Below are positions 2 through 16,385 of a DNA stretch of 16,385 nt, one piece after another (position 1 is the first letter of the stretch; each line of letters begins with the position of its first letter). Source of the DNA: Candidatus Micrarchaeota archaeon (GTDB taxonomy: Archaea; Micrarchaeota; Micrarchaeia; Norongarragalinales; SBBD01); contig JBBSVW010000035.1 of assembly GCA_038046605.1 (NCBI GenBank), forward strand, positions 16,026 to 32,410, written 5' to 3'. Below the pieces are notes generated by a model. That model saw only the letters and a program-made list of their open reading frames with translations. It had not been told where the DNA came from and searched no databases. The translations under genes were made by a program, and so were the position numbers.

Positions 2-3000
2 GAAATCTACAGGCACCCTTGAGCCCCTTGTGTAATTTACACCTAGGGGCCGGGCTAGGGATATTGACAGGTTGGTATTGATCGTAATGTTGTAGACGGT
101 GGAATTGACGCTCTTATAGCAGGAATTACTGGTGGATCCTATTTTCCAGCCTTGGATTCCAGGAGCGTAAGTGCATGAGGGATCAAAGGAGGTATTCAAA
201 TAGCCATTTGAAAGGGTCGTAACTCCGGTGCCGGCATCGTAACTGCTCCCATTTGTTGTAACCCACCTGGTTCCTGAAACAATGCCAACTCCGGGGAAGG
301 TGCTACCATCTATGTCGTAGAGGCGAAGTGAAAACGCGGATGAGTTGGTTCCATTCCTCCAAATCGAATCACCATCGCCAGCAACGTAAGTAAAGTTCAC
401 ATCCTTTGGTTCGATTGTGAAATTGGTGGGGGTGAGGTTTGCCGTGAAATTCTCATCAGAGGCATTCCAGAAGAACTGCCAGCCGGCGATGTCGCCGCAT
501 GCAAAATTGCTCTTGGGGATGGAGAGCATGGTGCTGTTGCAGTTGCTTGAGCAGGTACGTGTCGATACCAAGGTCCAATCGCCAGAATAGCCCTGGCGGA
601 TAAATAAATAGGCCGTAACAAGGTCATTATCTTCATCGGTTACTGAAACGTTGAAATTGAAGGTTTCTCCGGGGGCGCCATAATCTTGTGTGTTTCCATC
701 CTCATTGGAAGTGTTTACAAACTGCACATTCAAGGTTGGGCCGGTTTGGATCCTGAAGATGTTGTTTATTGTAGTCGAGTTGAAGTTGTGGTATGGCTTG
801 GATGCGTTCATGGTGACATTGTAGTGGCGGGATGGCAAAGCGGTCGTATTGAATGTGCAATTGTAAGCGCCGGTGGTCTCATTTAGGATTGGGGCGCAGG
901 AATAATCAGCTGAGCTGCGTTTGTATGAAAGATTGACAAGCGCGTCGGTAAGTGGCACGGAGCATTCGTCCGTGATATTTGCCCTAATCGTCACATTGGA
1001 TCCGCGCGGATAATTTGCCCCGTTCGGGGTCAGGAGGGAATTTTGGATGTCTGCAAATACGCTTACATTGAATTCGGATGAATTCAACACCTGGTAGCAT
1101 CCATCAGTAGCTCCCGCTTTCCATAATTGTTTCCTTGGCTGGTAGGTACAGGAGGGATTGAATATTGCCTGCAGGAAGCCAGAGGAATTTGTTTGAGTGG
1201 CATTGCCAGAATCATAAAGCGAACCATTTGTTGTAACCCATACTGTCCCGTTCACAGACCCATTAAGGAATGCGCCTTTTTCCGAATCGAACAACCTAAT
1301 TGACAGTAGTTGTGCGCCAATGCTCCTATTCACATTGGTTTCGTTCCCAATGAAGTGGGAAACGGTGAGATTTGAGGTGGACATGTTTGGGCCGTAGGTG
1401 TTGCTTGTGTTTTGGGTATTCAGGACCGAACCTGCCTGGTAGTCGTAAATATTGAATTTGAAATAGTTATCTGTGCCAATTTCGCCGCATGCGTAATTGG
1501 AGACGTTGAATATGCATGTCCCATTCCCGTTTGCCAATGTGTAATTTTGGCCTTGCAATGTCCATGAGGTCCCATTATCGACGCTGGTATACAATGAGCA
1601 GTTTACGGAATTGCCATCTGGATCGGATACATTCACGGAATATGTGAAAATCCTGCTCCAGCCTCCACTTGACGGAGTGACACCGATATTGTTGAAGGTG
1701 GGCTGGGCATTGACCAGCGTAAACCGTTCGAAAAATAGCGAGCTGTTTGAATTATAGGTGGAATTGGTCGCATTGACCCGGATGCTCCAAAGTCCGGGCG
1801 CTTTTCCGGATGAATCCCAGGTGCAATTGAAATTTCCATTGCCCTCATTTGAAACCGGCGTGCAAAGCTCGGTAGCATTCGACGGCGATTGGAGCTGGAA
1901 AACTACTGTCGAGGCATTAAGCGGACCTTCCGCTGAGCAGTCGGTTGTGACATTTGTCCTCAATGCTAATAGGTTCGAAGTATTGTAGGTGGTGCCATTT
2001 ACTGGAGTGGAAAGGTTGACAAATAGCTGGCCCGTCACATTTATAGAAAAGTTGCTGGTTAGCGAATCAGAATAATAAAGGTCGTTTTGGACGCCGCCGC
2101 GCCATCTTTGTATGGAAGAAGAAAAGGAGCAATCCGGATTGAAATCAAGGGTCAGGAAACCCGAAGAGTTGGTGGTCGTGTTTTGGGGGGTATTGAAAAC
2201 TTGCCCATTGAGCGTAATGAAATAGCTTCCATTGACATTCCCTGCAACATACTCCCCACGGATTTGGTCGTAGACCCGAAGGATCAGGGGGGTTGTCTGG
2301 GATCCCTCCCGATTCACGACCGAATTGACACCGGCACCAATTTCAATAGTCACCGTATCCTTGGCGATTGTAAACGAGGATACGGATGTGTTGGTAGTAT
2401 AGCCGTATTGGTCGGTTGCGTTGAAGAAATACTCGCTTACGCCTACATCGGTGTTGTTGAAGGTTTGGACGAAATTTAGGGGGGTTGAAGAGCAGGCGCT
2501 GCAGCTTTGGGTTTGAAGGAAAACCCAGGTGGAATTGCCACTTTTGCGCTTGAATAAGTACACAGTAACGTTGTTATCATCAAGATCGGTTACGGTCACG
2601 GAAAAATTGAACTGGCCTCCCCAGCCGCCAGAAGAAGGCGTTACTGATGGGGAACTTAGGATTGGCCTGCTTGCTAGGTAGAATGCAAACGCCCGGGTCA
2701 CGGAGGCATTGGAAAAGTATGATTTGCTCGCATTCACTGTGACATTATGGAAGCCGTACGTCCAGCCGGCGGTCGTGGTGTTTGGCGCAGTGCAATTGTA
2801 AAAGCCATTCCCCTCATTCACGGCATTACAGGTGTAGCTGGTATCGGGGGCCATGAGCACGGTTGATCCGTTCACAAGTCCGCATCCGCCTATGTCCGTA
2901 ATGTTTGCCCTGAAATTTATGTTGTCGACGCCCCGGAGGAAGGTAAGATTGAGCGGCGCATAAAGCGCAGGGAGGAATTCGGATGTGATTGTCACATTGA

Positions 3001-6000
3001 AATCGGTGGAATTCGAGGGCTTGAATAGCGAAGAGGTGTCAAGGATTCCTGCTTTCCATTTCTGGAGCCCCACGCCATAAGTGCAATCCGGATTGAACGC
3101 CGAGGAATCAATCCAGCCGGAGGAATTTGTGAATACCTGAATGCCTGCATCGTAATTGCTCCCATTGGTAGTGACCCATATCCTGCCTTCTTCACTTGCC
3201 ACATTTATTGATGGCTTGTCTGTGTCTACAACCCTGACAATGAACCTTGAGGAATTGGACCCAAGCCTGCTTACCGTTGTTGAATTCCCAAGGTAATGGT
3301 CGGCCCTTGTGTCGTCGCGCTCAATTGTGAAATTGTACTCCGGCGATGTGATGCTGTTTGCCGCATCATCCTCAGTTGCATTGAATTTCACGGACCAATT
3401 CCCGATGTCCCCGGATGAGCCGAATGTCTTGGAGAAATTGATGGATTGGTTTTGGCCTTGGCGGATAACAGAGCCTACAAGCTGCCATTCTCCAAGTGCG
3501 GGCGTTAATTGCCTTACGAACGAGTATATGGTTATCGTGTCATTGTCCTCATCCGTCAGATTGGAGGAAAGGTAGAAGGTTTCGCCATACCCGCCGGGAT
3601 TTGGATTTGCCAAAACATTGGTGAAATTAACGTAGGTCTCGATGAAGAAAGACGAGGTGGACGCAACGTATTCGCGCAGGGTTGTCTCGTTGTTGAAGAA
3701 CGCCTTGGAGGCATTGAAGGTCACATTGTATGCGCCGGCATACATCGAAGTGGTATTGAATGTGCAGGAATAATTCCCGGAGCTGAAATTGGATACGCCT
3801 AGGCAGCCGTAAAGCTGGCGGGTGTTGTTGTGGGTTGCGGAGAAATTGGCCATCGCATCAGTCACCGGGACATTGCAATCTGTCAGGATTGAGCCGTTGA
3901 TAGTGGCATTTTGCCCCCGTATAACTTCTATGCCATAAGGCAACGTGACGTTTAATGAAAGGCTGCCAAGGATTGTGAGGGAGGATGCAGTGGTGTTTAC
4001 CGGGAGGTAGCAATTGTTGGTTGAGCCAACCTTCCATTGCGCAACGCCTGTGCCATAGCCGCAGGAGGGGTTGAAATCCAGCCTTGCATGGCCGGAGGAA
4101 TTGGTTTGGGTCTGATTTCCCAAATCATAGTCTACCCCGTTTGTTGTGACCCAGAATGTGGCATTGACCAGCGGGTCGTAGGATTGGTTGTCGGTATCAT
4201 AGAGCCGCATTATCAGAGTCGTGAAATTGCCAAGGCTCCTATTGACATACGAGTTCTGCCCATAGATGAAATCCACCGTAAGGTTGTCTGCCGTCAAGTT
4301 GAGGTCCGCATTTGGCGTAGCATTGAAGGTGTTGCTTGGCTCGCCATTTACAATTTGGAAGAAATATTGGGAGTTGTTTCGCAAATCGCCGCATGTGAAA
4401 TTGCCAACAGTCACAGTGCAATTTCCACTGCCAGTTGAAAGGGTTGAGGACCCTTGGTAAACGAACTGCCCGGATGTGTTGACAAATAGATTGCAGGTTA
4501 CTGGCTCCCCTTCAGGATCGTATACTGATACGTTGAATTGGTAGGCAAGGCCCCAGCCTCCAGCTTTCCTATTCACGCTTTGGTTTTGGGCGCTTGTCAG
4601 GACGTTTTTTAGGTAGAAGCGGTTGCTAAAGAGGGTAACATTGGAATTGTAGTAGGGCATGGAGGCGTTTAGGAGGATGGAGTAGTTGCCCTGCGCCTTG
4701 TTCGAGGTGTCGAATGTGCAGTTGTAGTAGCCGTCGCTTTCATTCATCGTTGGCGAGCAGAGGTAGTTTGCCAGGGTTTGGTTGTGGATGAATGTGGCAT
4801 TTGTTATCGATGTGTTAAGGAAGCCTTCCTGCGCAAGGCATTCGCTTGTGACATTATATCGAACTGTAACGTTATTTGTTACGTTGTAGATGGATTGGTT
4901 GATTGGGAGGAGAAGCGATACGTGCACCTGGCCGATGATGTCAAGGCTGTTAGCGGATGAATTCTTGTTCTTGTAGCAGATGTCGTTTAAGACGCCGCCT
5001 TTCCAGTTGTGGCTTCCGGCTATGTACGAGCATGAGGGATTGAAATCATAGTTGAAATAGCCGCTTGAGTTGGTCTGGTTGAAATAGCCAGAGTCGAACA
5101 CGCTTCCGCTTGTGGTCACCCAGAATGAGCCGTTGACTCCAGTTCCCACAATTGAGGCGTTGTCTGTGTCGTTTACATAAAGGCGCAGCGCGCCGGAGGG
5201 GGTTCCGTCCCGGTTGATTTGGAAGGCGGATGCACCCACAAGCACATCCACATCATCCTGCTGGAGCGTGAAATTTGAAACAGTTGATTGATTTGCAAGA
5301 CCGGTACAAAGGCCGGTTGTTACATTGAACATGAAGTCCCATGTGGAATTGTCGACAAAGTTTGAGCAAGTGAAGGCCTCATCAACAAAGGTTAGGTTCG
5401 TGCCGGAGCCAGCGCTGCAGGAGGGGCATGATTGCGATCCGCGGAACTGCCAGACAAGAGAGTTGTTTGGCTTTACCCAAAGGGAGACGTTTATTGTGTC
5501 ACCTGAAGGGTCGAAAACGGTGATGTTGAATGTGCGCTTGACACCCCAGCCATCTACTCCCACATTCACTCGCGGATCATTTAGTTCAGGAACTGCGGCA
5601 AGCCTTAGGGAACTTACGGAAGTGTTTGAGGCATTCTGATAGTATTGCTTGCTTGAATTCACAGTGATGTTGTAAAGGCCATAGCTCCTGCCGGTCGAAT
5701 CCCAGGTGCAGCTGTAATTGCCGGTTGCAAGGTCGGTAGCTGAGCTGCATGAGAATGTGGAGGATTGGCGTTTCACGAAAGTTTCAACAACGGCGCTGGC
5801 AACTCCCGAGCATTCATCCCGGATTGTTGAATTGATTATTATTTGGGTTCCGGGGGAATAGCATGTTCCGGCAACCGGGGAGACGATTGTATTGTTGAAG
5901 GGATCAGTAATGATGGATAGGTTGTAATCGGAGGAATTCATCTCATAGTAGCAGCTAGTTTGGGGCACGTTTACCTTCCATCTCTGCGGTCCGACAATAT

Positions 6001-9000
6001 AGCTGCAGGTTGGATCGAACGACCGTATGACAAGGCCGTTTACGGAGGTATTCGTGCCGGATGCTATGTAATTGGACGATCCATCAGCGGTTACATATAG
6101 CGTGCCGGTAACCCCGTCTGGAAGGTCTGTCGAATCTACGAAATCGCGGAATCGGATTGAAAGCGTCGTTGCATTCGTGACCCTGTGGACGACCGAATTG
6201 TTCCCAAGGGATAGGGTCGCCGTTAGATTGCGCCTCTCAAGGGCAAAGGTCTTGTTTTCGGTTTGCGCCGTAAGGCTTTGGTTATCCGTTGCATTGAACT
6301 TGAATTGCCAATTGCCAAAATCCGAGCATGCCGAATGGGTTGAATCGGAGAATGTCAGGGTTTGGTTTGTGCAATTGTTGCATTCCTGGGATGAGACAAG
6401 CGTATATTCAGAAGCGCCAGGTGCTTTTTGCCAAAGCCTGACGGTCGCATTGTCATCCTCATCCCAAACCGTTACGTTGAAGAGTATCGATGCCCCCCAA
6501 TATACCCAGGATAGGTTGGAAAGGGGGTTTGAGAGGTAGGGCGGCGTCGAGATGTGGAATGAGTTTGTTTTTGATGTTTGCGCAAGGAAGTAATTTGTTT
6601 TCGATGCATTCATGAAGGCCATGTAAGTCCCTCCTTGGAGGGCGGACGTGTTGAAGGTGCAGTTGTACATCCCGCCTCCTTCCTCTAGGACATTTGAACA
6701 GGCAAATGCAGAGCCGCCATCCCTTATTGAGAAATTGACATTTGCGCCCGTCACAACAACGCCGCAATCATCAGTCAAATTGCCCCTTATGGTGACATTT
6801 TGGCCTTGCGAAATCATGCTTCCTAGGGGGGAGGTTATGTTTGCATTTAGCTCGCCTTGGATTGTCAAAACCATGTCGGAGGAATTTTGGCTAAAGTAGC
6901 AAGCATCAGCTAAAATTCCCCCTTTCCAAATTTGAGGCCCAATTGAATAGCTGCATGTTGGGTTGAATGACACTGGGGCGTGGCCGGAGGAATTGGTTTG
7001 GGTGGAATTGCCCAAATCATACAATGCGCCGTTGGTGGTTATCCAGATTGTGGCATTTGACGAGCCTATGAGGTAGGTTTGGTTATCCAAATCGAATAAT
7101 CGAAGCACAAGGTTTGTTAGGTTTGAGCCTGATCTGTTGACAACGGAGGCATTTCCTGCCCCCAGGGTTACATTTATCGCATCCCGGGTAAGGTTTAGCG
7201 TCGCATTTATCGTCGTATTGAAAGTGTTCGACGGCTCGCCGTTTATAACCTGGAACATGAAACCCGAGTTATTTCTGATATCGGCGCAGGTGAAATTATG
7301 AACCACCACCGAGCATGTGCCCTGGCCCGTTGGCAGGGTGCTGTTTCCGCGGTAGGTGAATTGGGTGGAGGTGTTGGTGAATAGCTGGCATGTCACCGAT
7401 TCACCCTCGGGATCCAGTATGGTTGTGTTGAATTGGTAGCTTTGCCCCCAGCCGCCTTGGGTTAGGTTTACAATTGGCGGAGTGGAATTGGTTAGGATGT
7501 TCCTTAGGTAGAAGCGGTTGCTAAAGAGGGTAACATTGGAATTGTAGTAGGGCATGGAGGCGTTTAGCAGGATGGAGTAGTTGCCCTGCGCCTTGTTCGA
7601 GGTATCGAATGTGCAGTTGTAGTAGCCGTTGCTTTCATTCATGGTTGGCGAGCATAGGTAGTTTGTCAGGGTTTGGTTGTGGATGAGGGTTGCGTTTGTA
7701 ATGGAGGTGTTGAGGAAGCCTTCCTGTGCAAGGCATTCGCTTGTGACATTATACCGAACTGTAACGTTATTTGTTACGTTGTAGGTGGATTGGTTGATTG
7801 GGAGGAGAAGCGATACATGCACCTGGCCGATGATGTCAAGGAAGGAATCCGAGGAATTTTTGTTCTTGTAGCAGGCATCATTGAGAACCCCGCCCCGCCA
7901 TACCTGCGCCCTTGCATTATAGCTGCAGGATGGATTGAAGTCGTAGTTAAGGTAACCGGAGGCATTTGTTTGGTTGAAATATCCCGAATCTAGAATGCTG
8001 CCATTTGTCGTAATCCAGAAACTTCCGTTGACTCCAACGCCCACGATGGATGCATTGTCGGTGTCGTTTACATAAAGGCGCAGGGTTCCGTATGGCGAGC
8101 CGTCCCTGTCAACGGATGAGGCGCTTGCACCAATTATGACATTGACATCATCTTGCTGCATGGTAAAGTTTGCAACTGAGGATTGGTTTGTAAGGGAGGT
8201 GCAAAGGCTAGTTGTTGCATTGAACATGAAGTCCCATGAGGAATTAGTGGCATAGTTCCCGCATGTGAAGGTCTCATCGACGAATGTTAGGTTAGTGTAG
8301 GTGCTGCAGGAGGGGCATAATTGCGATCCGCGGAACTGCCATATGTTGCTGTTGTTGGGCTTTACCCAAAGGGAGACGTTGATGGTGTCGCCCGAAGGAT
8401 CCCGAACGGTGATGTTGAATGTGCGCTTGACACCCCAGCCATCAACCCCCACATTAACCCGGGGGTCGTTTAGTTCTGGAACTGCGGCAAGCCTTAGGGA
8501 ATCTAGGCTTGTGTTGCTGGCGTTGGCATAGTATTGCTTGCTTGAATTCACCGTTAGGTTGTAGAGGCCATAGCTCCTGCCGGCAGAATTCCAAACGCAG
8601 CTGTAATTGCCTGTTAACAGGTCGGTTGTGGAGCCGCATACTGATGAGCTTGCGCCTTGCCTAACTGTTGCACTAACAGTAGCGCTTGCAATGCCAGAGC
8701 ACTCGTCCCTAACTGTAGAATTGAGTATTATCGAAGCCCCTGGAACATAACAAGTGCCACTAACGGGCGATACAATTGTATTGTTTGGGGCATCGGTGAT
8801 TATGGAGATATTATAAACTGTCGAGTTGACCGAATAGTAGCAGGAAGTTGCAGCCGATTCTATTTTCCAGCTCTGGGGGCCAACTTGCCAGCTGCATGTC
8901 GGATCGAATGCACGCCTAACAATGCCATTTAGGGATGTGTTGGAGCCGCCGGAGAGGTATGAAATGGCGCCTCCATCGGTTGTGACATACAAGGTGCCAG

Positions 9001-12000
9001 TGACACCCGTTCCGATATCCTGAGCTGAATCTACTGCGTCAACAAATTTTACGCCAAGGGAGGATGTGTTGGTTACGCGATGGACTACGGAGCTGTTTCC
9101 GGATTGCAGCTGGAAGGTAAGGTTCCTTTGCGTTAGGTTGAAGGTGTTGTTCGTCGTCTGGTCGGTGAAATTGACAGTGTCCGTCGCATTGAACTTGAAT
9201 TGCCACTGGCCAAAATCAGAGCAGGCGGAATGGGTGGAATCGGAAAACGAGAGGTTGTAGTTGGTGCAGTTTGTGCAAACCTGTGAGGAGATGAACGAAT
9301 ATTCGGAAGCCCCAGGCGCTTTTTGCCAAAGTGATACCGTCACATTATCATCCCGGTCAGTGACAGTTACGTTGAATTCAATTGTTGCCCCCCAATAAAC
9401 TGATGAAAGGTTTGCAAGTGGATTTGTTAACACGGGGGAGGTTGCTATTTTGAAAGCGTTGGTTTTTTGAATTGAGCCATTTGAATAATGCAGCTTGGCA
9501 GAGCCCATGAATACACGGTAAACCCCCCCACCTAAGGCAGTTGTATTGATCGAGCAGTTATATGAGCCAGATCCTTCTTCATAAACAATGGGGCATGCGA
9601 TTGGTCCGCCGCCGTTTTGCACTGTGAAATTGACAGTTGCTCCGGTTACCGCAATGCCGCAATCATCCGTGACATTGCCCCTAAGGGTTATGTTGACACC
9701 CGGCGTGTAATTTTGGCCAAGTGGGAATGTGACATTGTTGTTCAGGGCGCCGATGACAAAGAAGGAATAGTTTTGGGATGAGTTCCTCTGGGAATAGCAG
9801 GCATCGGATAGCACCCCGCCAGACCAGTTCTGAAGGCCCACATTGTAGCTGCAGGAGGGCTTGAATATTATGCTGAAATTCCCGGATGCATTTGCGGCCG
9901 TGAAATTGCCGGAATCGTAGGAGGCGCCATTGGTTGTGACCCAAATGGTCCCATTCGCATTTGTGGCGCCCGTGCGATTGTCATCATCATATGCCCTAAG
10001 CGCCAGGATTATGGTCCCGTTTTGCCTAGTGACATTGGCCCCATTCCCGGAAATGTAGGAAATTGTGACGTTGTCTTTTTCAACTGTCCAGTTTGAAATT
10101 ATGGATGAACCATTTGAGCCTTGCGTATCCGTGCCATTGAACATGAAGTGCTTTAGCCCGATGTCATTGCAGGTGAATTTGTATTCGACGGTGTAATTGA
10201 CAATTGAATTCGTGCATGTGGTGCATGTGGATTGGTTTAGGATGCTAAATGGCCCGGTTGAGGCATTCCCATAATAGAGCGTCAAATCGACATCCTGGCT
10301 CTCGGAATCCTGCACAATCGCCGAAAAGTTAAGCTGCTCCCCCCATCCTGCAGGGGAGGGATATTCTGAAATACTGATTATCACAGGGGCAGTGTTGTTT
10401 GGGGAGAAGAGCTGGAAGGCATTGCCTGCAAGAGAAGTGCCATAATTGAAATATTCCTTTGTGGCATTTGCGGTAATGTTGTATATTCCCGGCGCCAGGG
10501 CGCTCGTATTGAAGGTGCAGGAGTAGGTGCCGTTGGAATAGTTGACTATGTCGCTTCCGCCGCAGTGCGTCATGTTGAAAAGTCCGGTGATGTTGAATGC
10601 GGGAGTGGCATTTGCGGCAAACAAGCCGCATTCATCGCGGGTGTTCAAGGTCAGTGTGACATTTTGCCCGATAGTGTATGAGGCGCCAGTGCCATTGAGA
10701 GTGGAAATTGCGAATGCAAAATCCGCATAAACAGAAACATTGAACCGGGCGGAGAGCTTATCGACATAGCAGGTGTCCGATGAAACAATTGCATACCAGC
10801 TTTGGTTCCCAGGGGAGTTATCGCAGGTTGCATTGAAGTAGAAATCAACGCTTCCGGAAGAGTTTGTAGTATTCGTGCCTGCGGTTAAGTTAAAGGTCGT
10901 ATTGGTTGAAACATTGAATGTGATGGTTGCCGCTGGCGTTCCTGCATACAAACCTCTATCGGTATCCGATATGTTGAGCGTAAACCTTACTTTTTGCTCA
11001 CCGGACCTATTGACAATTGAATTATTCCCGCGAATATGGAGGAAAGTCACATCGTCCTTTTCAATTGTTGTGGAATTTTCAGCAATTGAGGCGGATTGCC
11101 CTTCGGAAGTGTTTGCGGAAAATGTGTAAAACCACGTGCCTACCTGCGAATTGCCGGCAGCGCAGGTGAAATTGTAGGTCCAAAGCGCCGTCTTGTTCAG
11201 GCAGCCTACGCAAAAACTTGCGGGCGTTACTTCGAAGGATGGAACAACAGGCGAACAGCTAGGGCAGCGAAGAGAGAGCCTTGCAGTAGTATTAATGTTC
11301 CAAACCGAGGAGGAGTAATTAACTGTATAATTTACTGGAACGCCCCAGCCATCGCTTGATGGGATCACAAGCGGCGCGGAAATCTTGGGCTTTGCCGTCA
11401 GGTAGAATAGGTATGCGGGATCGGGCCCGACCTTCGTTTTGAAATCGCCGTAGTATTTGGACGCGGTTGAATTCATGGTGACATTGTAATATCCGCCGAT
11501 CTTATCCTCGGTTGAAGCCCATGGGCATTCGTAAAACCCCCCTCCAAGGCTGCTTCCCGAGCAGAGCTTGTTTGTGTTATTTGCGGTGAAGTTGAATGAG
11601 GTGATTATGGATGAATCCTCAACGGGGGATATGAAATTGCCGCAATCATCCTTCACATTCCCTTGCGCATTGATTTCGGTTGGGTCGGTGAAATTTGTTG
11701 AGCCGGAAGGATTTGTCACATTGTTTGTTAGGAATCCCTTGATCTGCAGGGCATAGATTGTGGAGGTAATGTCATTGTAGCAGCTGGATCCCACAAGGGA
11801 TACTTTCCAGCTCTGGTCGGGCCTTGAGGTATACTGCGTTGGCGAGCAGGTCGCATTGAAATTGTAATCGAGATATCCGGTTGAATTCGTCGAATTGAGT
11901 ATAGAGGGGCCATAATTCGTGCCATCGTAAGTGACTGATAAATTAAGCGCATAATTCCCAAGATATGTGCCATTGGTATCATTGACAAGGACTCTAAGAA

Positions 12001-15000
12001 GGTCGTTATTTGAGCTTGATCTGTTTGCAAGCGAGGCATTTCCCGCAATTAGGTTTATTTGGAGAGTGTCCTTGGTTATTGTATAAGTGGTTCCCAGGGA
12101 TACTGTGGTCGTATTTAGATTGCCGTCGTTGTCGAAGATCGTGAAATTGTAATACCATGAGCCGATGTCATCGCATCTCCATGCCTGCGAGAAATTAGCA
12201 TAATTCCAAACGCCATTGGAGGTCACATTAGATGTGTTCAAAACCGTCCAATTGACAAGCCCATCGGGGGATTTTGAAAGGTTGACAGTCAGATTGTGGA
12301 ATTGCGAATAAACTGCAACTGAAAACTGTTTGCGGAAACCAAATCCGGAAGAGGAAGGAGTAACTGAAACATTCTGGTATTGCGGAGTGTCGGTACAGGA
12401 GAAATTAACATAATAAAGCCGGCCCTTGTGCTGCGCAAAGTAGGTATTGTTTGTGGCATTGAATTGGAACTGCTGGTTGTATTGCGCGCCAAGGGGAGTT
12501 GCGAAGGAATAATTATAAGCAAGCGAACCCGATGTGCCATCGGCTGTGAGGTTTATGGCATTACCCCATCTTGCAAACCCTGTTCCGGATGCAAACAATG
12601 CGGTTGTGAAGCCCTGTGGAGTAATAGTTGAAGGGTAATATTCTGTGAAATTATACAAATAGCCTACCCTGTTGCCCTTGTTGAATATGGCGTTGCTGAC
12701 ATTGAATGTGCCGCATGAAAATGAGGACGGGAAGCCTGAAATCCAAGGACCTGCTGGATTCGATGCATATGCCCTTGAGGTCTTAAGGAATGGGCCTTGT
12801 ACTACAAGAGCAAAGCGATTATCGTCCAGTTTGAATCTAATGGGGGGACCAGTTGCGGTCTCACCTTGCGATGAACCCCTAGCGCTAAAGAAATAGCGCT
12901 TGCCTCCGGGTTGGAAATCAGGAGTAGCTGAAACATTTGTTGTGAAGGAGAATTCTAAACGGGCCCCCTCCTGCAACTGCCCCAAGGATTCCATTTTGAT
13001 AACCCAGCCTTCCGCCACCGAGCCAAGCGGATAGCCGGGCCTTGGAAGGACTGAAGTGAAATTATAGGGTTTGGAAAAACCATGTGCCAATTCCGATCTA
13101 ACTATATGCATGTTTGCATCCCTGTCTCCAGCAGAGCTCCCGCCTTGGAAAATGAGCCGCGTATTTACATTGATGGTTGAGTTCTGGTTCACAGATGCAT
13201 TAGGGAAGTAAGTAATATTGTTGCCCGAAAAAACCACTGTCGGGAATGTGTTGTCGGCTTGCGCGGATGACTGGGAAATGGTCCTCACTTCCGAAACGGA
13301 TTTTGAATTCCCCGCCCACGAAACTGTGGTGGTAAAGGAATGGTCCAAGCCCGTGAAATCAATTGGCCCCCAGGAAAGTATTGCGCCGAAGCATTCGGAA
13401 GTGGCAATGGGAATATTGCTCCACCTTGCAAATGAGCCATCGCCCGAAGTATTTGCGGGGGTTGCTGCAATAAATGTGAAATAGGCACTTGGAAATTCAA
13501 GGTCTATTACGGCATCTGTTATTGGGACATCACCGTAATTGCAAACGGCAATGGTCATGTTGAAATCTTCATAAGTATCCTCGGTAGTCGTGCCCACATA
13601 ATCGTCTGACGCGGTATAAATGACCACTGGCTCGCTTGCAAGAGTGAAGGTTTTTGCATAAGTGTTTTGCTGGAAAGGGCTCTTGACCAAAACTTGGGAG
13701 GTATATGTTTTGGAAGTATCCGCATCGTCTGGCACCCATACCCTCCATAACACCGCGGATTCGTTAAAAAATGGCGTGGTGTTGTGCTGATAGCCGGAAA
13801 TTCCAATTGAAATGGATTGGGAAGCGCCTTCCTCCATGTACCAGTCTTTGCTTGTGCTGCCATCGAGAATAGAAAGCGTCACATTGGCATTTAACGCATT
13901 TGTCTCATTATAGTTGAAAAGAGGCATTGCTATGTAGCCTATACTTCCGGGTATGAGTATGCTTGAGATGCCAGAATTATCCTTTACGGACATTTCCCTA
14001 TTTGCGACTTCTATATTCGAACAATTCCGGACAGTTACGGATACTATATTGCTTGAGAATTGTACGACCCCGTTTCTAAGCTGCATGTAAGTTCTAAGAT
14101 TATATGAGCCGGTTGCTTGCGGTTTGATTGTGAAATTTGTTGAACTGAACCCAAAAGTAGGAGAAGTTGTGGTGGCAGTCCAACTAACATCGTGTGGATT
14201 CATGTCTCCGGCCCAGAAGACCCAGTTGCTTGCGGGAAGGCTAGCGTAGGGGCCTCCGGTTGAAACCTGAATTGATACATTGTCTACATCTGTTCCAGTG
14301 GATCCCTTGACTATTCCAACAGATAAGTTATAGGTATGGTTTGCGCAAAGGACTGCCGGATCCCAAGGATACGGGGTTGCAGCAGAGTATGTTTCATTGA
14401 AATAAAAAGTTAAGTCGTGTATGAAGAAACGATCATCAGCGCCAATTGTCCAGTTGCGTGCCTCCTCGAATGAATTGCCCGAATTATATTCTATTTTCAT
14501 CCTTCCAGCCAAGTAGAGCATGGGGGAAATCGGAGGCGGCTCGTAGGAGTATTGAATGGTTTTTTCCTGGCCTGCCATCAAATTCCCAAGGGGGAATTTT
14601 ATCTGCTTGTAGCCGTTGCCCAAATCAGTCACATCGAGGGATGAGGGCCCAAAGACAAATGAAGAGGGGAGGTATTCGTAGGCAGTGGCGTTAAGCACAT
14701 CGCTTGTAGGAGTGATTTCAATTGTTACGGGCGTTAGCCCAAGCTGGATTAGTGTTGGCTCCCTCCGTTCGATATCAAATTGCCTACTTGCCCTGGCTTC
14801 AAATGCATCTGAAAAATCGGAATCGATGCCAACTTCGGGCTTTTGCGCGCGGGCATAGATGAAATATGCCCCGATTTCATCTACAGGGTATTGCAAGGAG
14901 TATTCCCCATTGTAATTGTCTGAGATGATTCCCGGATAGGTGGTGAAATTGTATTGCGCGCCAGTTGGGGATGTAATTTGCACATCAATGGTTGCCGAAT

Positions 15001-16312
15001 CCGCCCTTGAGCCATCGGGATTCAGGACTCCAATTGTTATGTTTGCAATTTCGCCTGGAAGGTAGATGCTGCGCTCCGTATTGATGTTGACAAGGCCAAG
15101 GGCAAAGCCCTCCTCCTCGCCATAATCGGAAATTTCAATAAGCGATTCGCCGGCTGCAAGCGGGCCAAAGAGCGCAAGGTCGCTTTGGGCATCAGGGGAA
15201 TTTGCCGCTTTTGCCCCAAAGGGGGGAAGCGAAACTGTTGTTGGTGAAGGCAAGGTTTCAGCAGAATGCAAGGGCGCTTCTGAAGGGGAAGGAGTTGCAG
15301 ATGGGAAAGGGGTTGATTCAATTATTCCTGTTGGGGAAGGAGAAGGAATTGCACCTATTGACTCCGTCGGGGTTGGAGATGCAATTGATGCAGGCGCATC
15401 CATTGGGGAAGGGATGGGGGAGGAAATTTCAGTTGGGGATGGGGAAATCTGGTTGGTAGCATTAGCCTCATCCAAAATTATTGGTATGGCAGTTAGTGTG
15501 CTTCCAGTCAGGATTGGGATTCCAGTTGCAGCCGGTTCGGGCGTTGGGGCAACGGGTTTGGGCGTTGGGGGCGCGCCATTTGCTGGATCATCCAAAGCCT
15601 TATTTCCCGCCCCTAATTTCACCTTCTTCTTGAAATTCGCAACAAATTTCAGGTAATAGTAGCCTGGCCGGAATGCATTTTGGGATGGGATCTCAAAGCG
15701 CTTTCCATTGGGGCCATCGGCCAGGGCGACCTCAATTTCGGCTCCATCACTTGCAACAAGGAATGCCTGGAACTTGCCACCGGCTATTTTCTTGCTCTCA
15801 TCATCAAGGAAATCAAGATCGAATGAGATGCTCTCGCCAATCTTGTAGCTTTTCTTCTTGTTTGAAATGATTGCCTGGAATTTGGTTGGCTTTTTGCGGA
15901 TTAATCCCGATAAGTTTAAAGCGGTGCCGTTTAGTTCGGTTGAATTTGTGATGTTCATGCCGGTTTGGTTCAATATTGATTCGTTAAGGGTTAGGTTTGC
16001 TTGGGGAAGCTGCGTTAGGTTGATTGCCAAATACAAATCGCTTATGACCATCAGGGCAGTATCAAAATATCCTGTAAAATTTTCTTTGCTTACCCTAAGG
16101 GAATGGAATCCTTCGGAAATGTTTGTGAAATTGGCAGGGGATGGGAAGGGCGCAAGATCATCCAGGGATATTTCCGCATCTGCCGGGATGGCCTCCACAA
16201 AAACATTCCAGGTTGCATTGGTGAAATTGTATGCAATTGCGGTTGGCGAAGGCGAAATGGACGGCTCAACTGATGGGGATGGGGAAACATTCACAGATGG
16301 TTCTGGTGAAAA
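2..16312 (-). CDS. Giant (>=5,437 aa, 3'-partial) repetitive, Cys- and N-glycosylation-sequon-rich surface/secreted protein with tandem Ig-like beta-sandwich domains (adhesin- or S-layer-associated-like)
   Basis: Manual translation of the minus frame whose codons occupy p..p+2 with p mod 3 = 2 gives coherent protein at both ends (16312: FSPEPSVNVSPSP...; near base 2: ...SLARPLGVNYTRGSRVPVDF) and in every section translated between them. No minus-strand ORF in the supplied track lies in this frame, consistent with no internal stop. In the 336-bp duplicated block, 14 of 18 mismatches are at third codon positions of this frame. First in-frame starts after the TAA are GTG 16294 and ATG 16051; neither has an obvious RBS or is followed by a signal peptide. 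Confidence 0.95.
4000..6870 (-). repeat. Copy 2 of the ~2.9-kb tandem DNA duplication
   Basis: Matches copy 1 as above; the indels seen are in frame (e.g. CSAGSGTNL vs CSTYTNL). Confidence 0.85.
4611..4946. repeat. 336-bp near-identical direct repeat, copy A (partner 7506-7841)
   Basis: Base-by-base comparison: 18 mismatches in 336 bp (~95% identity), no indels. Confidence 0.95.
6870..9760 (-). repeat. Copy 1 of a ~2.9-kb tandem DNA duplication (three repeat units)
   Basis: Many exact or near-exact matches to ~4000-6870 at offsets of 2889-2895 bp (e.g. 7506/4611, 8066/5171, 8220/5325, 8303/5414, 9186/6291). Boundaries are approximate. Confidence 0.85.
7506..7841. repeat. 336-bp near-identical direct repeat, copy B (partner 4611-4946)
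   Basis: Same comparison; offset 2895 bp (965 codons). Confidence 0.95.
14792..15097 (-). other. Macroglobulin MG2-like Ig domain
   Basis: GLVNINTERSIYLPGEIANITIGVLNPDG...IDVQITSPTG...GEYSLQYPVDEIGAYFIYA resembles the MG2 (PF01835) motif TDRPIYRPGETV...I.DP.G...G.Y.I.A. Recognised by eye. Confidence 0.6.
15200..15590 (-). repeat. Pro/Ser/Thr-rich low-complexity linker 2 (~130 aa)
   Basis: Translation includes APPTPKPVAPTPEPAA...ISPSPTEISSPIPSP...SPTPTES...PSPSPT...SATPSPSE...LPSPTT. Confidence 0.85.
15611..15885 (-). other. Ig-like/MG-like domain (KKSYKIGESISFDLDF...FRPGYYYLKF)
   Basis: Y-x-x-G-E-x-I-x-F start and PG-x-Y-x-L tyrosine-corner-like motif typical of beta-sandwich domains. Confidence 0.5.
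16016..16210 (-). other. PEGA-like domain within the giant protein
   Basis: WNVFVEAIPADAEISLDDLAPFPSPANFTNISEGFHSLRVSKENFTGYFDTALMVISDLYLAINL follows the PEGA pattern (V.S.P.gA.V.iDg...tP.....l.pG.H.v.v.K.gy). Recognised by eye, not by HMM. Confidence 0.65.
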
Positions 16313-16385
16313 TTAAGGAGAGGGGGATATGGATTGCTCAATTGAAGCATAAGGGGTAGGCGACATGGTAGAGGTCGGCATGGGG
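16229..16385 (-). repeat. Ser/Pro/Thr-rich low-complexity linker 1 (SPSP-type motifs)
   Basis: Translation PMPTSTMSPTPYASIEQSISPSP*FSPEPSVNVSPSPSVEPSISPSPT. Confidence 0.85.
16313..16385 (-). CDS. 5'-partial in-frame upstream segment (PMPTSTMSPTPYASIEQSISPSP*), probably the N-terminal part of the same giant gene, ended by an in-frame TAA
   Basis: Same frame as the giant ORF, with the same Ser/Pro/Thr linker composition on both sides of TAA 16313-16315. Confidence 0.7.
   Translation of the reverse strand, partial: PMPTSTMSPTPYASIEQSISPSP

Follow-up and report, generated by a model that had tools for sequence, protein, structure and literature searches.

A gene of about 12,000 codons in a Micrarchaeota archaeon probably encodes a SPEARE-type giant surface glycoprotein with a cytoplasmic ATPase tail

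We characterized a stretch of 16,385 nucleotides (hereafter, the window) that spans positions 16026-32410 of the 32,410-b contig JBBSVW010000035.1 (C35) from an assembly of a Candidatus Micrarchaeota archaeon; the right end of the window is the end of the contig, and all contigs labelled C1, C9, C17, C35, C83 and so on belong to this same assembly (genome G000). The window is the internal part of one reading frame on the minus strand, and it covers roughly the second to the sixth thousand residues of a single gene of ~12,000 codons. From its N-terminus, the encoded protein consists of an AbrB/MazE-like segment, a hydrophobic segment, a Pro/Ser/Thr linker, a variable N-terminal region, an array of ~25 three-domain units, further beta-sandwich domains, a transmembrane (TM) helix and, on the cytoplasmic side, a P-loop ATPase of HerA/VirB4-like type whose Walker A and B motifs are intact. 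Within the window lie part of the linker, all of the variable N-terminal region and 13 array units. Its features are listed below, with residue numbers counted along the window frame; G038 is a genome of the same genus, and ORF stands for open reading frame.

2..16312, minus strand: stop-free frame of 5,437 codons, internal part of a giant gene (translation; comparison with G038)
2..12418, minus strand: 13 super-repeat units of ~322 residues, residues 1299-5437, the last cut by a scaffold gap (repeat analysis)
4055..9688, minus strand: diverged tandem duplication of a three-unit block, 4055..6793 versus 6947..9688 (70.7% DNA identity over 2,775 b)
12419..14845, minus strand: non-repeat region, residues 490-1298 (no Pfam or NCBIfam family)
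14846..15091, minus strand: MG2/filamin-like beta-sandwich, residues 408-489 (Pfam, scores below curated cut-offs)
15212..15460, minus strand: second Pro/Ser/Thr-rich linker, residues 285-367 (composition)
16055..16207, minus strand: PEGA-like beta-sandwich, residues 36-86 (Pfam, E 1.5e-5)
16220..16309, minus strand: Pro/Ser/Thr-rich linker, residues 2-31 (composition)
16313..16315, minus strand: in-frame TAA within the Pro/Ser/Thr linker, 'SISPSP*FSPEPS' (translation)
16316..16384, minus strand: 23 further codons of the same linker in the same frame, to the contig end (translation)
6072..6539, plus strand: 155-aa ORF antisense to the giant frame (ORF listing)
15858..16316, plus strand: 152-aa ORF antisense to the giant frame (ORF listing)

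An earlier note, made from the letters of the window alone, had described one uninterrupted minus-strand frame of 5,437 codons that was absent from the ORF track and had neither terminus in view, and all of this was borne out. Translation of 2..16312 yields 5,437 codons and 0 stops; with ~3 stops per 64 codons, the chance of such a run is ~e^-260. The default ORF listing omits the frame because it runs off the window, while a listing that allows open ends reports it at 2..16294 as 5,431 aa with a GTG start and an open 3′ end. At its low end, the frame adjoins a 100-N scaffold gap (C35 15926-16025) at window base 1, and at its high end the linker reading continues in frame for 23 codons past the TAA, up to the contig end; both termini of the gene lie outside the window. 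The GC content is even (46-50%) throughout, and the two plus-strand ORFs of ~150 aa are most likely shadow ORFs rather than genes.

We followed the frame into the neighbouring sequence, a check that the earlier note had proposed, and reached a hydrophobic segment near the N-terminus (on C83) and a TM helix near the C-terminus (on C35). Beyond the 100-N gap, the same strand provides 2,481 more codons (C35 8481-15923), which are followed by 'NATL*D*CSLVAS', a string holding two in-frame TAA codons, and then by a third piece of 2,757 codons that keeps the same frame and ends at C35 201. C35 is almost wholly one gene, with 10,675 codons seen and 658 N-x-S/T sequons. The N-terminal piece lies on the 3,328-b contig C83, where an ATG at 2346 opens 327 codons that run to the contig end and encode, in order, a conserved 50-residue segment, a charged linker, a hydrophobic segment (residues 104-122) and a Pro/Ser/Thr linker. 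The top of the window opens in a linker of this C83 type ('PMPTSTMSPTPYASIEQSISPSP*FSPEPSVNVSPSPS'), and therefore the TAA at 16313-16315 interrupts the linker and is no sign of a gene start.

The size and order of the gene are best read from the G038 genome, which contains an open frame of 12,373 codons without any stop or N that is collinear with all three C35 pieces. Window residues 36-5437 align to G038 residues 440-5757 with 73.9% identity, in a single high-scoring segment pair (HSP) of 5,408 columns with 96 gap columns; the second piece corresponds to G038 7137-9618 (60.8% identity) and the third piece to G038 9622-12373 (66.7% identity). About 1,380 G038 residues fall within the scaffold gap, and therefore we estimate the present gene at ~12,400 codons. 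The first 600 residues of the window frame matched 14 of the 68 genomes of the order. Orthologous frames in G040, G044 and G006 comprise 5,191, 4,722 and 6,975 codons before running off contig ends inside the array. In G006, which belongs to another family of the order, a 1.30-Mb contig begins with 5,236 further codons that end in the same ATPase; the two ends are not in phase with each other and have a repeat in common.

Such breaks in three orthologues, together with the 100-N gap in the scaffold and contig ends that lie inside repeats or linkers, would also be compatible with an assembly artefact, in which repeats were mis-joined or collapsed and the true gene is much shorter or differently ordered. 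We consider this extremely unlikely. The window aligns to an independent genome as one collinear HSP, its most similar internal repeats are only 70.7% identical as DNA, and, outside the window, one contig assembled from a sequencing run (X2, below) spans a 1.6-kb stretch of the gene in one piece. The assembly of the window part looks sound.

The record of this metagenome-assembled genome (MAG) carries three in-frame TAA codons, one at window 16313-16315 and two at C35 8478-8480 and 8472-8474. TAA is an ordinary stop codon in the genome: stop-to-stop ORFs of at least 200 aa are followed by TGA in 421 cases, TAA in 373 and TAG in 265. Recoding of TAA was considered and rejected, as TAA, TGA and TAG each terminate long ORFs at unremarkable frequencies, and pairs of long ORFs that adjoin in the same frame across a stop show no excess of TAA (14 TAA, 14 TGA and 10 TAG).

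Three nonsense codons of an ordinary kind could mean that the copy is a pseudogene, broken and decaying. We compared the double TAA with Logan contigs from four runs (two samples of one study) over C35 7700-9300, where the depth is ~6-9; one of the four runs may be the source of the assembly itself. The contigs of two runs, X1 and X2, differ from the record at 8474 (C in place of A) and 8478 (G in place of T), so that the coding strand reads GAA (E) and TAC (Y), and the protein reads 'NATLYDEC' as in a 90% identical relative (P0003) where this record has 'NATL*D*C'. The X1 contigs break exactly at the double TAA, and one X2 contig spans the whole 1.6-kb stretch. Both differences are G-to-T or C-to-A changes. 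The stops at C35 8472-8480 are a consensus error or a minor allele, and the dominant sequence in two runs is intact. For the TAA at 16313-16315, an exact-pattern scan of metagenome contigs with the 36 bases beside it returned 0 matches. The low depth at the double TAA makes a consensus error plausible, the other 10,675 codons have no stop or frameshift, and the identity to G038 is high and nearly gap-free; we consequently judge a pseudogene to be very improbable. Stop codons in the MAG record of such a giant gene can be consensus errors and need not be signs of decay.

The protein encoded by the window has two distinct parts. Its first 1,298 residues comprise the linkers, the two beta-sandwich domains listed above and a non-repeat region (residues 490-1298) for which the ESM Atlas offers weak DUF11/CARDB-like leads of low recognition value; residues 1-1300 match no NCBIfam family. 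From residue 1299 onwards, the protein is an array of 13 units (12 whole and one cut by the gap), each of three beta-sandwich domains, which agrees with the earlier count of about 38 immunoglobulin (Ig)-sized domains. Eight further units follow beyond the gap and ~1.3 beyond the double TAA, and the G038 frame has 27 matches to the unit. The protein also has Big_7 Pfam matches. No WD40 domain was found by Pfam in the giant protein.

An AlphaFold model of one unit, computed from an alignment of 18 units, is all-beta and consists of three sandwiches, with a predicted local distance difference test score (pLDDT) of 87.8. Foldseek matched this model to the MG-domain arrays of complement C3/C5 and to the giant adhesins SiiE and MpIBP (E ~2e-9 to 5e-9). 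Identity from unit to unit is mostly 25-40%, while three neighbouring units are 68, 84 and 53% identical in protein sequence to the copies located three units further on, a pattern that, as judged from these identities, reflects an old duplication of a three-unit block.

Identity to G038 is lowest, at 35%, over residues 36-285, which include the PEGA-like domain; it is 53% over residues 286-535, 67-87% in the array and 85-86% in the tail, showing that the N-terminal region is the fast-evolving end of the protein.

The earlier note's claim of a giant surface protein is supported by the sequon load and by the placement of hydrophobic segments. The window protein contains 356 sequons (6.55 per 100 aa), compared to 120.7±9.3 and a maximum of 145 in 500 shuffles, and to a genome background of 0.81 per 100 aa (691 ORFs of at least 250 aa). 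Hydrophobic segments are absent from the window and from the second piece; the gene has only two, at its far ends, one on C83 and one just before the ATPase. The first of these (C83 residues 104-122) is preceded by ~100 residues and could be a signal peptide or a signal anchor. The genome also encodes an STT3/AglB homologue (50.9 bits; cut-off 24.5). Other long ORFs with 6-8 sequons per 100 aa are located on C85, C78 and C67 (863, 1,001 and 1,349 aa) and presumably encode additional surface glycoproteins; the C85 ORF is also similar to the part of the giant protein's ectodomain nearest the C-terminus, and a paralogue described below is similarly rich in sequons.

A very high sequon density, an STT3 gene and several other sequon-rich surface proteins in the same genome would also suit a coat or matrix glycoprotein of the cell's own envelope or biofilm, which would serve protection or cohesion and not host recognition; halomucin is a giant archaeal sugar-binding surface protein of comparable kind, according to excerpts of Hamm et al. 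2019 (PMC6642349). We find this explanation improbable. A conserved cytoplasmic ATPase with a partner gene is not expected of a passive coat, the N-terminal end evolves much faster than the rest of the protein, as in recognition proteins, and the names of the family's members point to a concentration in DPANN lineages that depend on hosts.

The last ~375 residues of the protein, after the TM helix, match DUF87/HerA in Pfam (E 2.4e-11) as well as HerA_C. We modelled the last 418 residues (pLDDT 88.7) and compared the model to known structures with VIA-align. The closest was Sulfolobus solfataricus HerA (PDB 4d2i; Z 25.8, 2.8 Å over 254 aligned residues), followed by bacterial defence HerAs (Z ~24), VirB4 (PDB 4ag6; Z 23.6), TrwB (Z 19.6) and FtsK (Z 18.1), with 215-278 residues aligned at 14-24% identity; Foldseek and a PDB sequence profile search agree. 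All 20 aligned sequences have the Walker A residues G/T/G/G/K and the Walker B residues D/E unchanged. In NCBIfam the tail falls far short of every cut-off, including those of TIGR02746 (TraC; 28.1 versus 567 bits), the HerA models NF040937 (26.8 versus 800 bits) and NF040819 (22.8 versus 970), and weak matches to CedD and TraB. The tail therefore has a HerA/VirB4-like ring-ATPase fold and is not a member of any curated family. Three short strands (model residues 75-102) lie between the juxtamembrane helix and the P-loop; only ~45 residues separate the TM helix from the P-loop, which is probably too short a stretch to hold a full HAS-barrel.

We examined the distribution of this ATPase module by searching with the tail. 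A near-length protein search (candidates of 1,516-4,825 aa, 7,997 scored) returned 320 proteins at E ≤ 0.001, with matches named as DUF87 proteins of Micrarchaeota, Aenigmarchaeota, Nanoarchaeota, Woesearchaeota, Pacearchaeota and Nanohaloarchaeota. An exhaustive search of 50%-identity cluster representatives found 973 proteins at E ≤ 0.001, of which 368 also pass E ≤ 1e-30; in many, though not all, of the 150 matches listed, the module forms the extreme C-terminus of a protein, and these proteins range from ~350 to 7,665 aa. In species-representative genomes, at least 614 stretches match the patterns and at least 579 of them encode a relative. The following counts on module position and on neighbouring genes refer to the best 80 of these at least 614 stretches. 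The module ends no more than 14 residues from the stop codon in 80 of 80 loci, and the 10-kb upstream flank is fully open in 41 of the 43 loci that have a full flank.

Within the order, the module was found in 14 of 68 genomes (10 of 22 of high quality), including 8 of 10 in family f1 and 3 of 6 in f3. It was not found in families f8 (0 of 26) and f9 (0 of 12), whose genomes mostly measure 0.7-1.1 Mb and are in many cases incomplete. The module occurs in the order's larger genomes, of 1.0-1.6 Mb.

A gene for a coiled-coil protein directly follows the giant gene. Here, it starts at C35:157 on the minus strand and, after 53 codons (C35:2-157), leaves that contig to resume on C17 (10339 to 7049, minus strand). 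Its product is more than 1,150 residues long and has a conserved core and, at the C-terminus, a small beta domain. A same-strand ORF of one similarity cluster lies downstream in all 77 loci with at least 1.5 kb of downstream sequence, a count that may be generous as coiled coils attract spurious similarity; in 57 loci the coiled-coil ORF starts within 120 b and is 450-740 aa long. The core motif is visible in the alignment consensus. Its only Pfam and NCBIfam matches are sub-threshold ones to coiled-coil families, and a search of the PDB found no relative (best E 0.031). Next after the coiled-coil gene, 12 loci have a MinD/ParA-like gene. Here the following genes are a 594-aa ORF (554 aa from its first ATG), whose 554-aa product matches no Pfam family, and then DnaJ, an order that recurs in G038. 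Conserved ORF clusters within 6 kb downstream of the 77 loci included no NurA/Mre11/Rad50 or type IV secretion system (T4SS) genes, in a search that covered neither upstream sequence nor weak homologues.

The same genome encodes a paralogue of 5,337 codons (C9:29126-45136, minus strand), whose tail is 52% identical and has a weak ResIII match. Its ectodomain differs, with right-handed beta-helix/NosD and Big_13 domains, and it is directly followed by a coiled-coil ORF of 596 codons. Elsewhere, three more ATPase-tail matches, each split in two (frames of 2,942, 3,404 and 450 codons), were observed on a G006 contig (G006:C1:780693-795224), in what looks like a paralogue cluster.

The structure of the tail raises the question of whether the protein forms a trans-envelope conduit. 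A HerA/VirB4/FtsK-like ring would then pump DNA or protein through a channel at the contact site, either exporting effectors or importing host DNA as in Ced-type systems, and the Ig array would mainly set the distance. The closest folds are all ring translocases (HerA, VirB4, TrwB and FtsK), the weak NCBIfam matches are to TraC, CedD and TraB, and T4SS-like secretion through a 'straw' is proposed in the available text of a 2023 study of xylan-degrading consortia (PMC10266531). We nevertheless regard a conduit as unlikely: each chain has only one TM helix, no other T4SS or Ced component appears among the conserved downstream genes, all the NCBIfam scores are far below cut-off, and the beta-sandwich rod has no obvious lumen.

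The opposite end of the protein begins with a second conserved element. The giant ORF opens with an AbrB/MazE-like segment of ~50 residues (C83:2346-2510) that is fused to it in frame; the segment occurs once per genome in 7 of 7 genomes of the genus, always in the frame of the giant ORF, with frames of 12,373, 5,383, 5,191, 4,191 and 3,502 codons and two that are cut by contig ends. Its identity is 62-67% over 60 aligned residues and 72-80% over the ~50 matched ones, above that of the neighbouring ectodomain. All eight aligned members match PF04014 below the gathering score (best E 4e-05; first member 21.4 versus 24.7 bits), and C56 and SpoVT are matched only weakly in a PDB profile search (E 0.09-0.2). 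All seven genomes conserve a TATA-like element (TTTAAAAAG ... AAATTAAT) ~50 b ahead of the segment's ATG, which fits the ATG being the real start. In G006, a similar ORF of 47 codons stands alone elsewhere in the genome.

Such a fusion would allow the giant protein to be a signalling device tethered at both ends. The AbrB/MazE-like segment, a putative DNA-binding element ahead of the N-terminal hydrophobic segment, would be cytoplasmic and would be freed by signal-peptide processing or by tension on the fibre. Fibre export or contact with a host would thereby act back on transcription, while the other end would be sensed or driven by the HerA-like ring and its coiled-coil partner. We offer this as a speculative proposal with low odds. 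No paper on an AbrB-like fusion or on the coiled-coil partner was found, though the literature searches were not aimed at those terms.

Taken together, we favour the explanation that the gene encodes a SPEARE-type giant surface glycoprotein of a Micrarchaeota (DPANN) archaeon: an exported, glycosylated rod with a variable N-terminal contact tip and a membrane-anchored ATPase tail that oligomerises with a coiled-coil partner. We give this explanation a probability of roughly three in four. The observations behind it are the order of domains, the fold of the repeat unit, the surplus of sequons, the preserved Walker motifs of the ATPase, the conservation of the partner gene and the rapid evolution of the N-terminal region. 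According to this proposal, the ectodomain would be exported and N-glycosylated at several hundred sequons, forming a rod of more than 100 domains. An Ig-sized domain measures ~4 nm, and the rod would be several hundred nm long if extended. Its fast-evolving N-terminal end would be the contact tip for a host cell. Under the membrane, the ATPase tail may oligomerise as its ring-forming relatives do, together with the coiled-coil partner, and the oligomerised tails could gather several chains into a bundle and link ATP hydrolysis to some process at the site of contact.

Several points weigh against this explanation. The ATPase module was not found in many genomes of the order, a patchy occurrence even at this level, and it is therefore not essential for a DPANN lifestyle. 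The copy in the MAG has its three in-frame TAA codons, two of which were compared with other assemblies, and the gene sequence is distributed among three contigs and interrupted by a scaffold gap, so that its size of ~12,400 codons is an estimate from G038. If the N-terminal hydrophobic segment remains uncleaved, the ectodomain would be a loop held at both ends, with no free distal tip. Pfam searches with eight pieces covering all 10,675 residues (E ≤ 0.01) detected no Laminin_G, and by Pfam the giant protein has no protease or toxin-like domain. Finally, we infer, and do not observe, the host-contact role, the oligomerisation and the interaction with the partner.

The gene occupies ~2.3% of the 1.64-Mb genome and, together with the 5,337-codon paralogue, ~3.2%. 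Such a share is strong indirect evidence that the protein has a central place in the organism's way of life. The family is widespread and its design is published. The present member contributes a collinear reference frame of 12,373 codons that is uninterrupted in a sister genome, a clear grammar of repeats and an AbrB-like fusion at the N-terminus that is shared across the genus.

The earlier note had surmised an archaeal, DPANN origin from sequon density and domain style, and the rest of the assembly supports it: the rRNA genes score best with archaeal models, and the closest named relatives of the ATPase tail, 86-90% identical, are titled Candidatus Micrarchaeota archaeon, a group that the NCBI taxonomy places under the kingdom Nanobdellati. 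A partial archaeal 16S rRNA gene on C1 (C1:13-2098) has model positions 829-1467 spread over 1,978 bases, which suggests an inserted stretch of ~1.3 kb that may be an rRNA intron. The 16S-23S spacer includes a tRNA (rRNA locus 2346-2414) that scores 38.7 bits with Rfam, and ARAGORN reports none.

Among known systems, the array resembles the rods of bacterial giant adhesins. SiiE of Salmonella and MpIBP of Marinomonas are likewise rods of many tandem beta-sandwich domains, and they match the unit model at E ~4e-9, whereas sequence identity is only 12-16%. These adhesins are exported by type I secretion and held in the outer membrane, and to our knowledge they have no cytoplasmic ATPase. Halomucin has been proposed as a protective coat and not as a contact device, and we know of no TM-ATPase tail in it. 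In excerpts of PMC6642349, this extracellular protein of Haloquadratum walsbyi (~9,000 aa) is the benchmark for size. The ATPase tail shares with HerA, VirB4, TrwB and FtsK a RecA-like core, Walker A and B motifs and the DUF87/HerA central domain, and it differs from the HerA/VirB4 class in being covalently tied to a membrane helix and a giant ectodomain.

The closest likeness is to the very long nanohaloarchaeal proteins that Hamm et al. 2019 named 'SPEARE' (PMC6642349), which combine an extracytoplasmic bulk, a C-terminal TM segment and a conserved intracellular portion. Excerpts of the same paper describe similar sequences in Woesearchaeota, Aenigmarchaeota, Micrarchaeota and Altiarchaeales, among them cytoplasmic portions resembling those of SPEARE proteins in Micrarchaeota assemblies, and proteomics showing that one SPEARE protein is made (Ca. 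Nha. antarcticus). Also called 'giant membrane-anchored extracellular proteins', they include proteins of 5,998 aa in Ca. Nanohaloarchaeum antarcticus, 8,553 aa in Ca. Nanopetramus SG9 and 9,409 aa for SVXNc_0300 (PMC6642349, PMC10266531). In the 2023 text, the architecture consists of a signal peptide, ~75 Ig-like domains, a TM helix, a VirB4/TraG-like ATPase and a coiled coil, and some of the original domain assignments of SPEARE-type proteins are argued to be wrong (PMC10266531). Archaeal genes of more than 10,000 codons are also noted in the available part of a survey preprint.

The tail matches RLG14629.1 (P0095) with E 3.8e-115, 50% identity and 89% coverage, and Hamm et al. 2019 list this protein as a SPEARE match (PMC6642349, in part); on the strength of this similarity, we assign the present protein to the SPEARE family, as a Micrarchaeota member. 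The presence of the family in Micrarchaeota is already in print, and close relatives may be among the Micrarchaeota matches in the supplementary information of that paper (Fig. S17, Table S3). A literature search for DPANN giant proteins with DUF87 or HerA gave nothing relevant by title or abstract, and one for Micrarchaeota Ig-like, transmembrane, ATPase or host proteins turned up only PMC10266531. In the wording of Hamm et al. 2019, each ectodomain has at least one laminin-G domain (PMC6642349), while the available description of SVXNc_0300 names none (PMC10266531); because of this 2023 description, we do not treat laminin-G as defining for SPEARE.

The present protein and the SPEARE proteins have in common a huge ectodomain composed of Ig-like domains in tandem, a single TM helix close to the C-terminus, a conserved cytoplasmic P-loop ATPase with coiled-coil helices after it, and a DPANN host. 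In the present protein, the tail of ~375 residues follows the TM helix. The next gene here encodes a coiled-coil protein and not a second VirB4-like ATPase, as is described for SVXNc_0299 in the excerpts of PMC10266531. The present gene is also longer (~12,400 codons estimated, and 12,373 intact in G038), its ectodomain is built of a 322-residue, three-domain unit, and in this genus an AbrB/MazE-like segment is fused in frame at the N-terminus.

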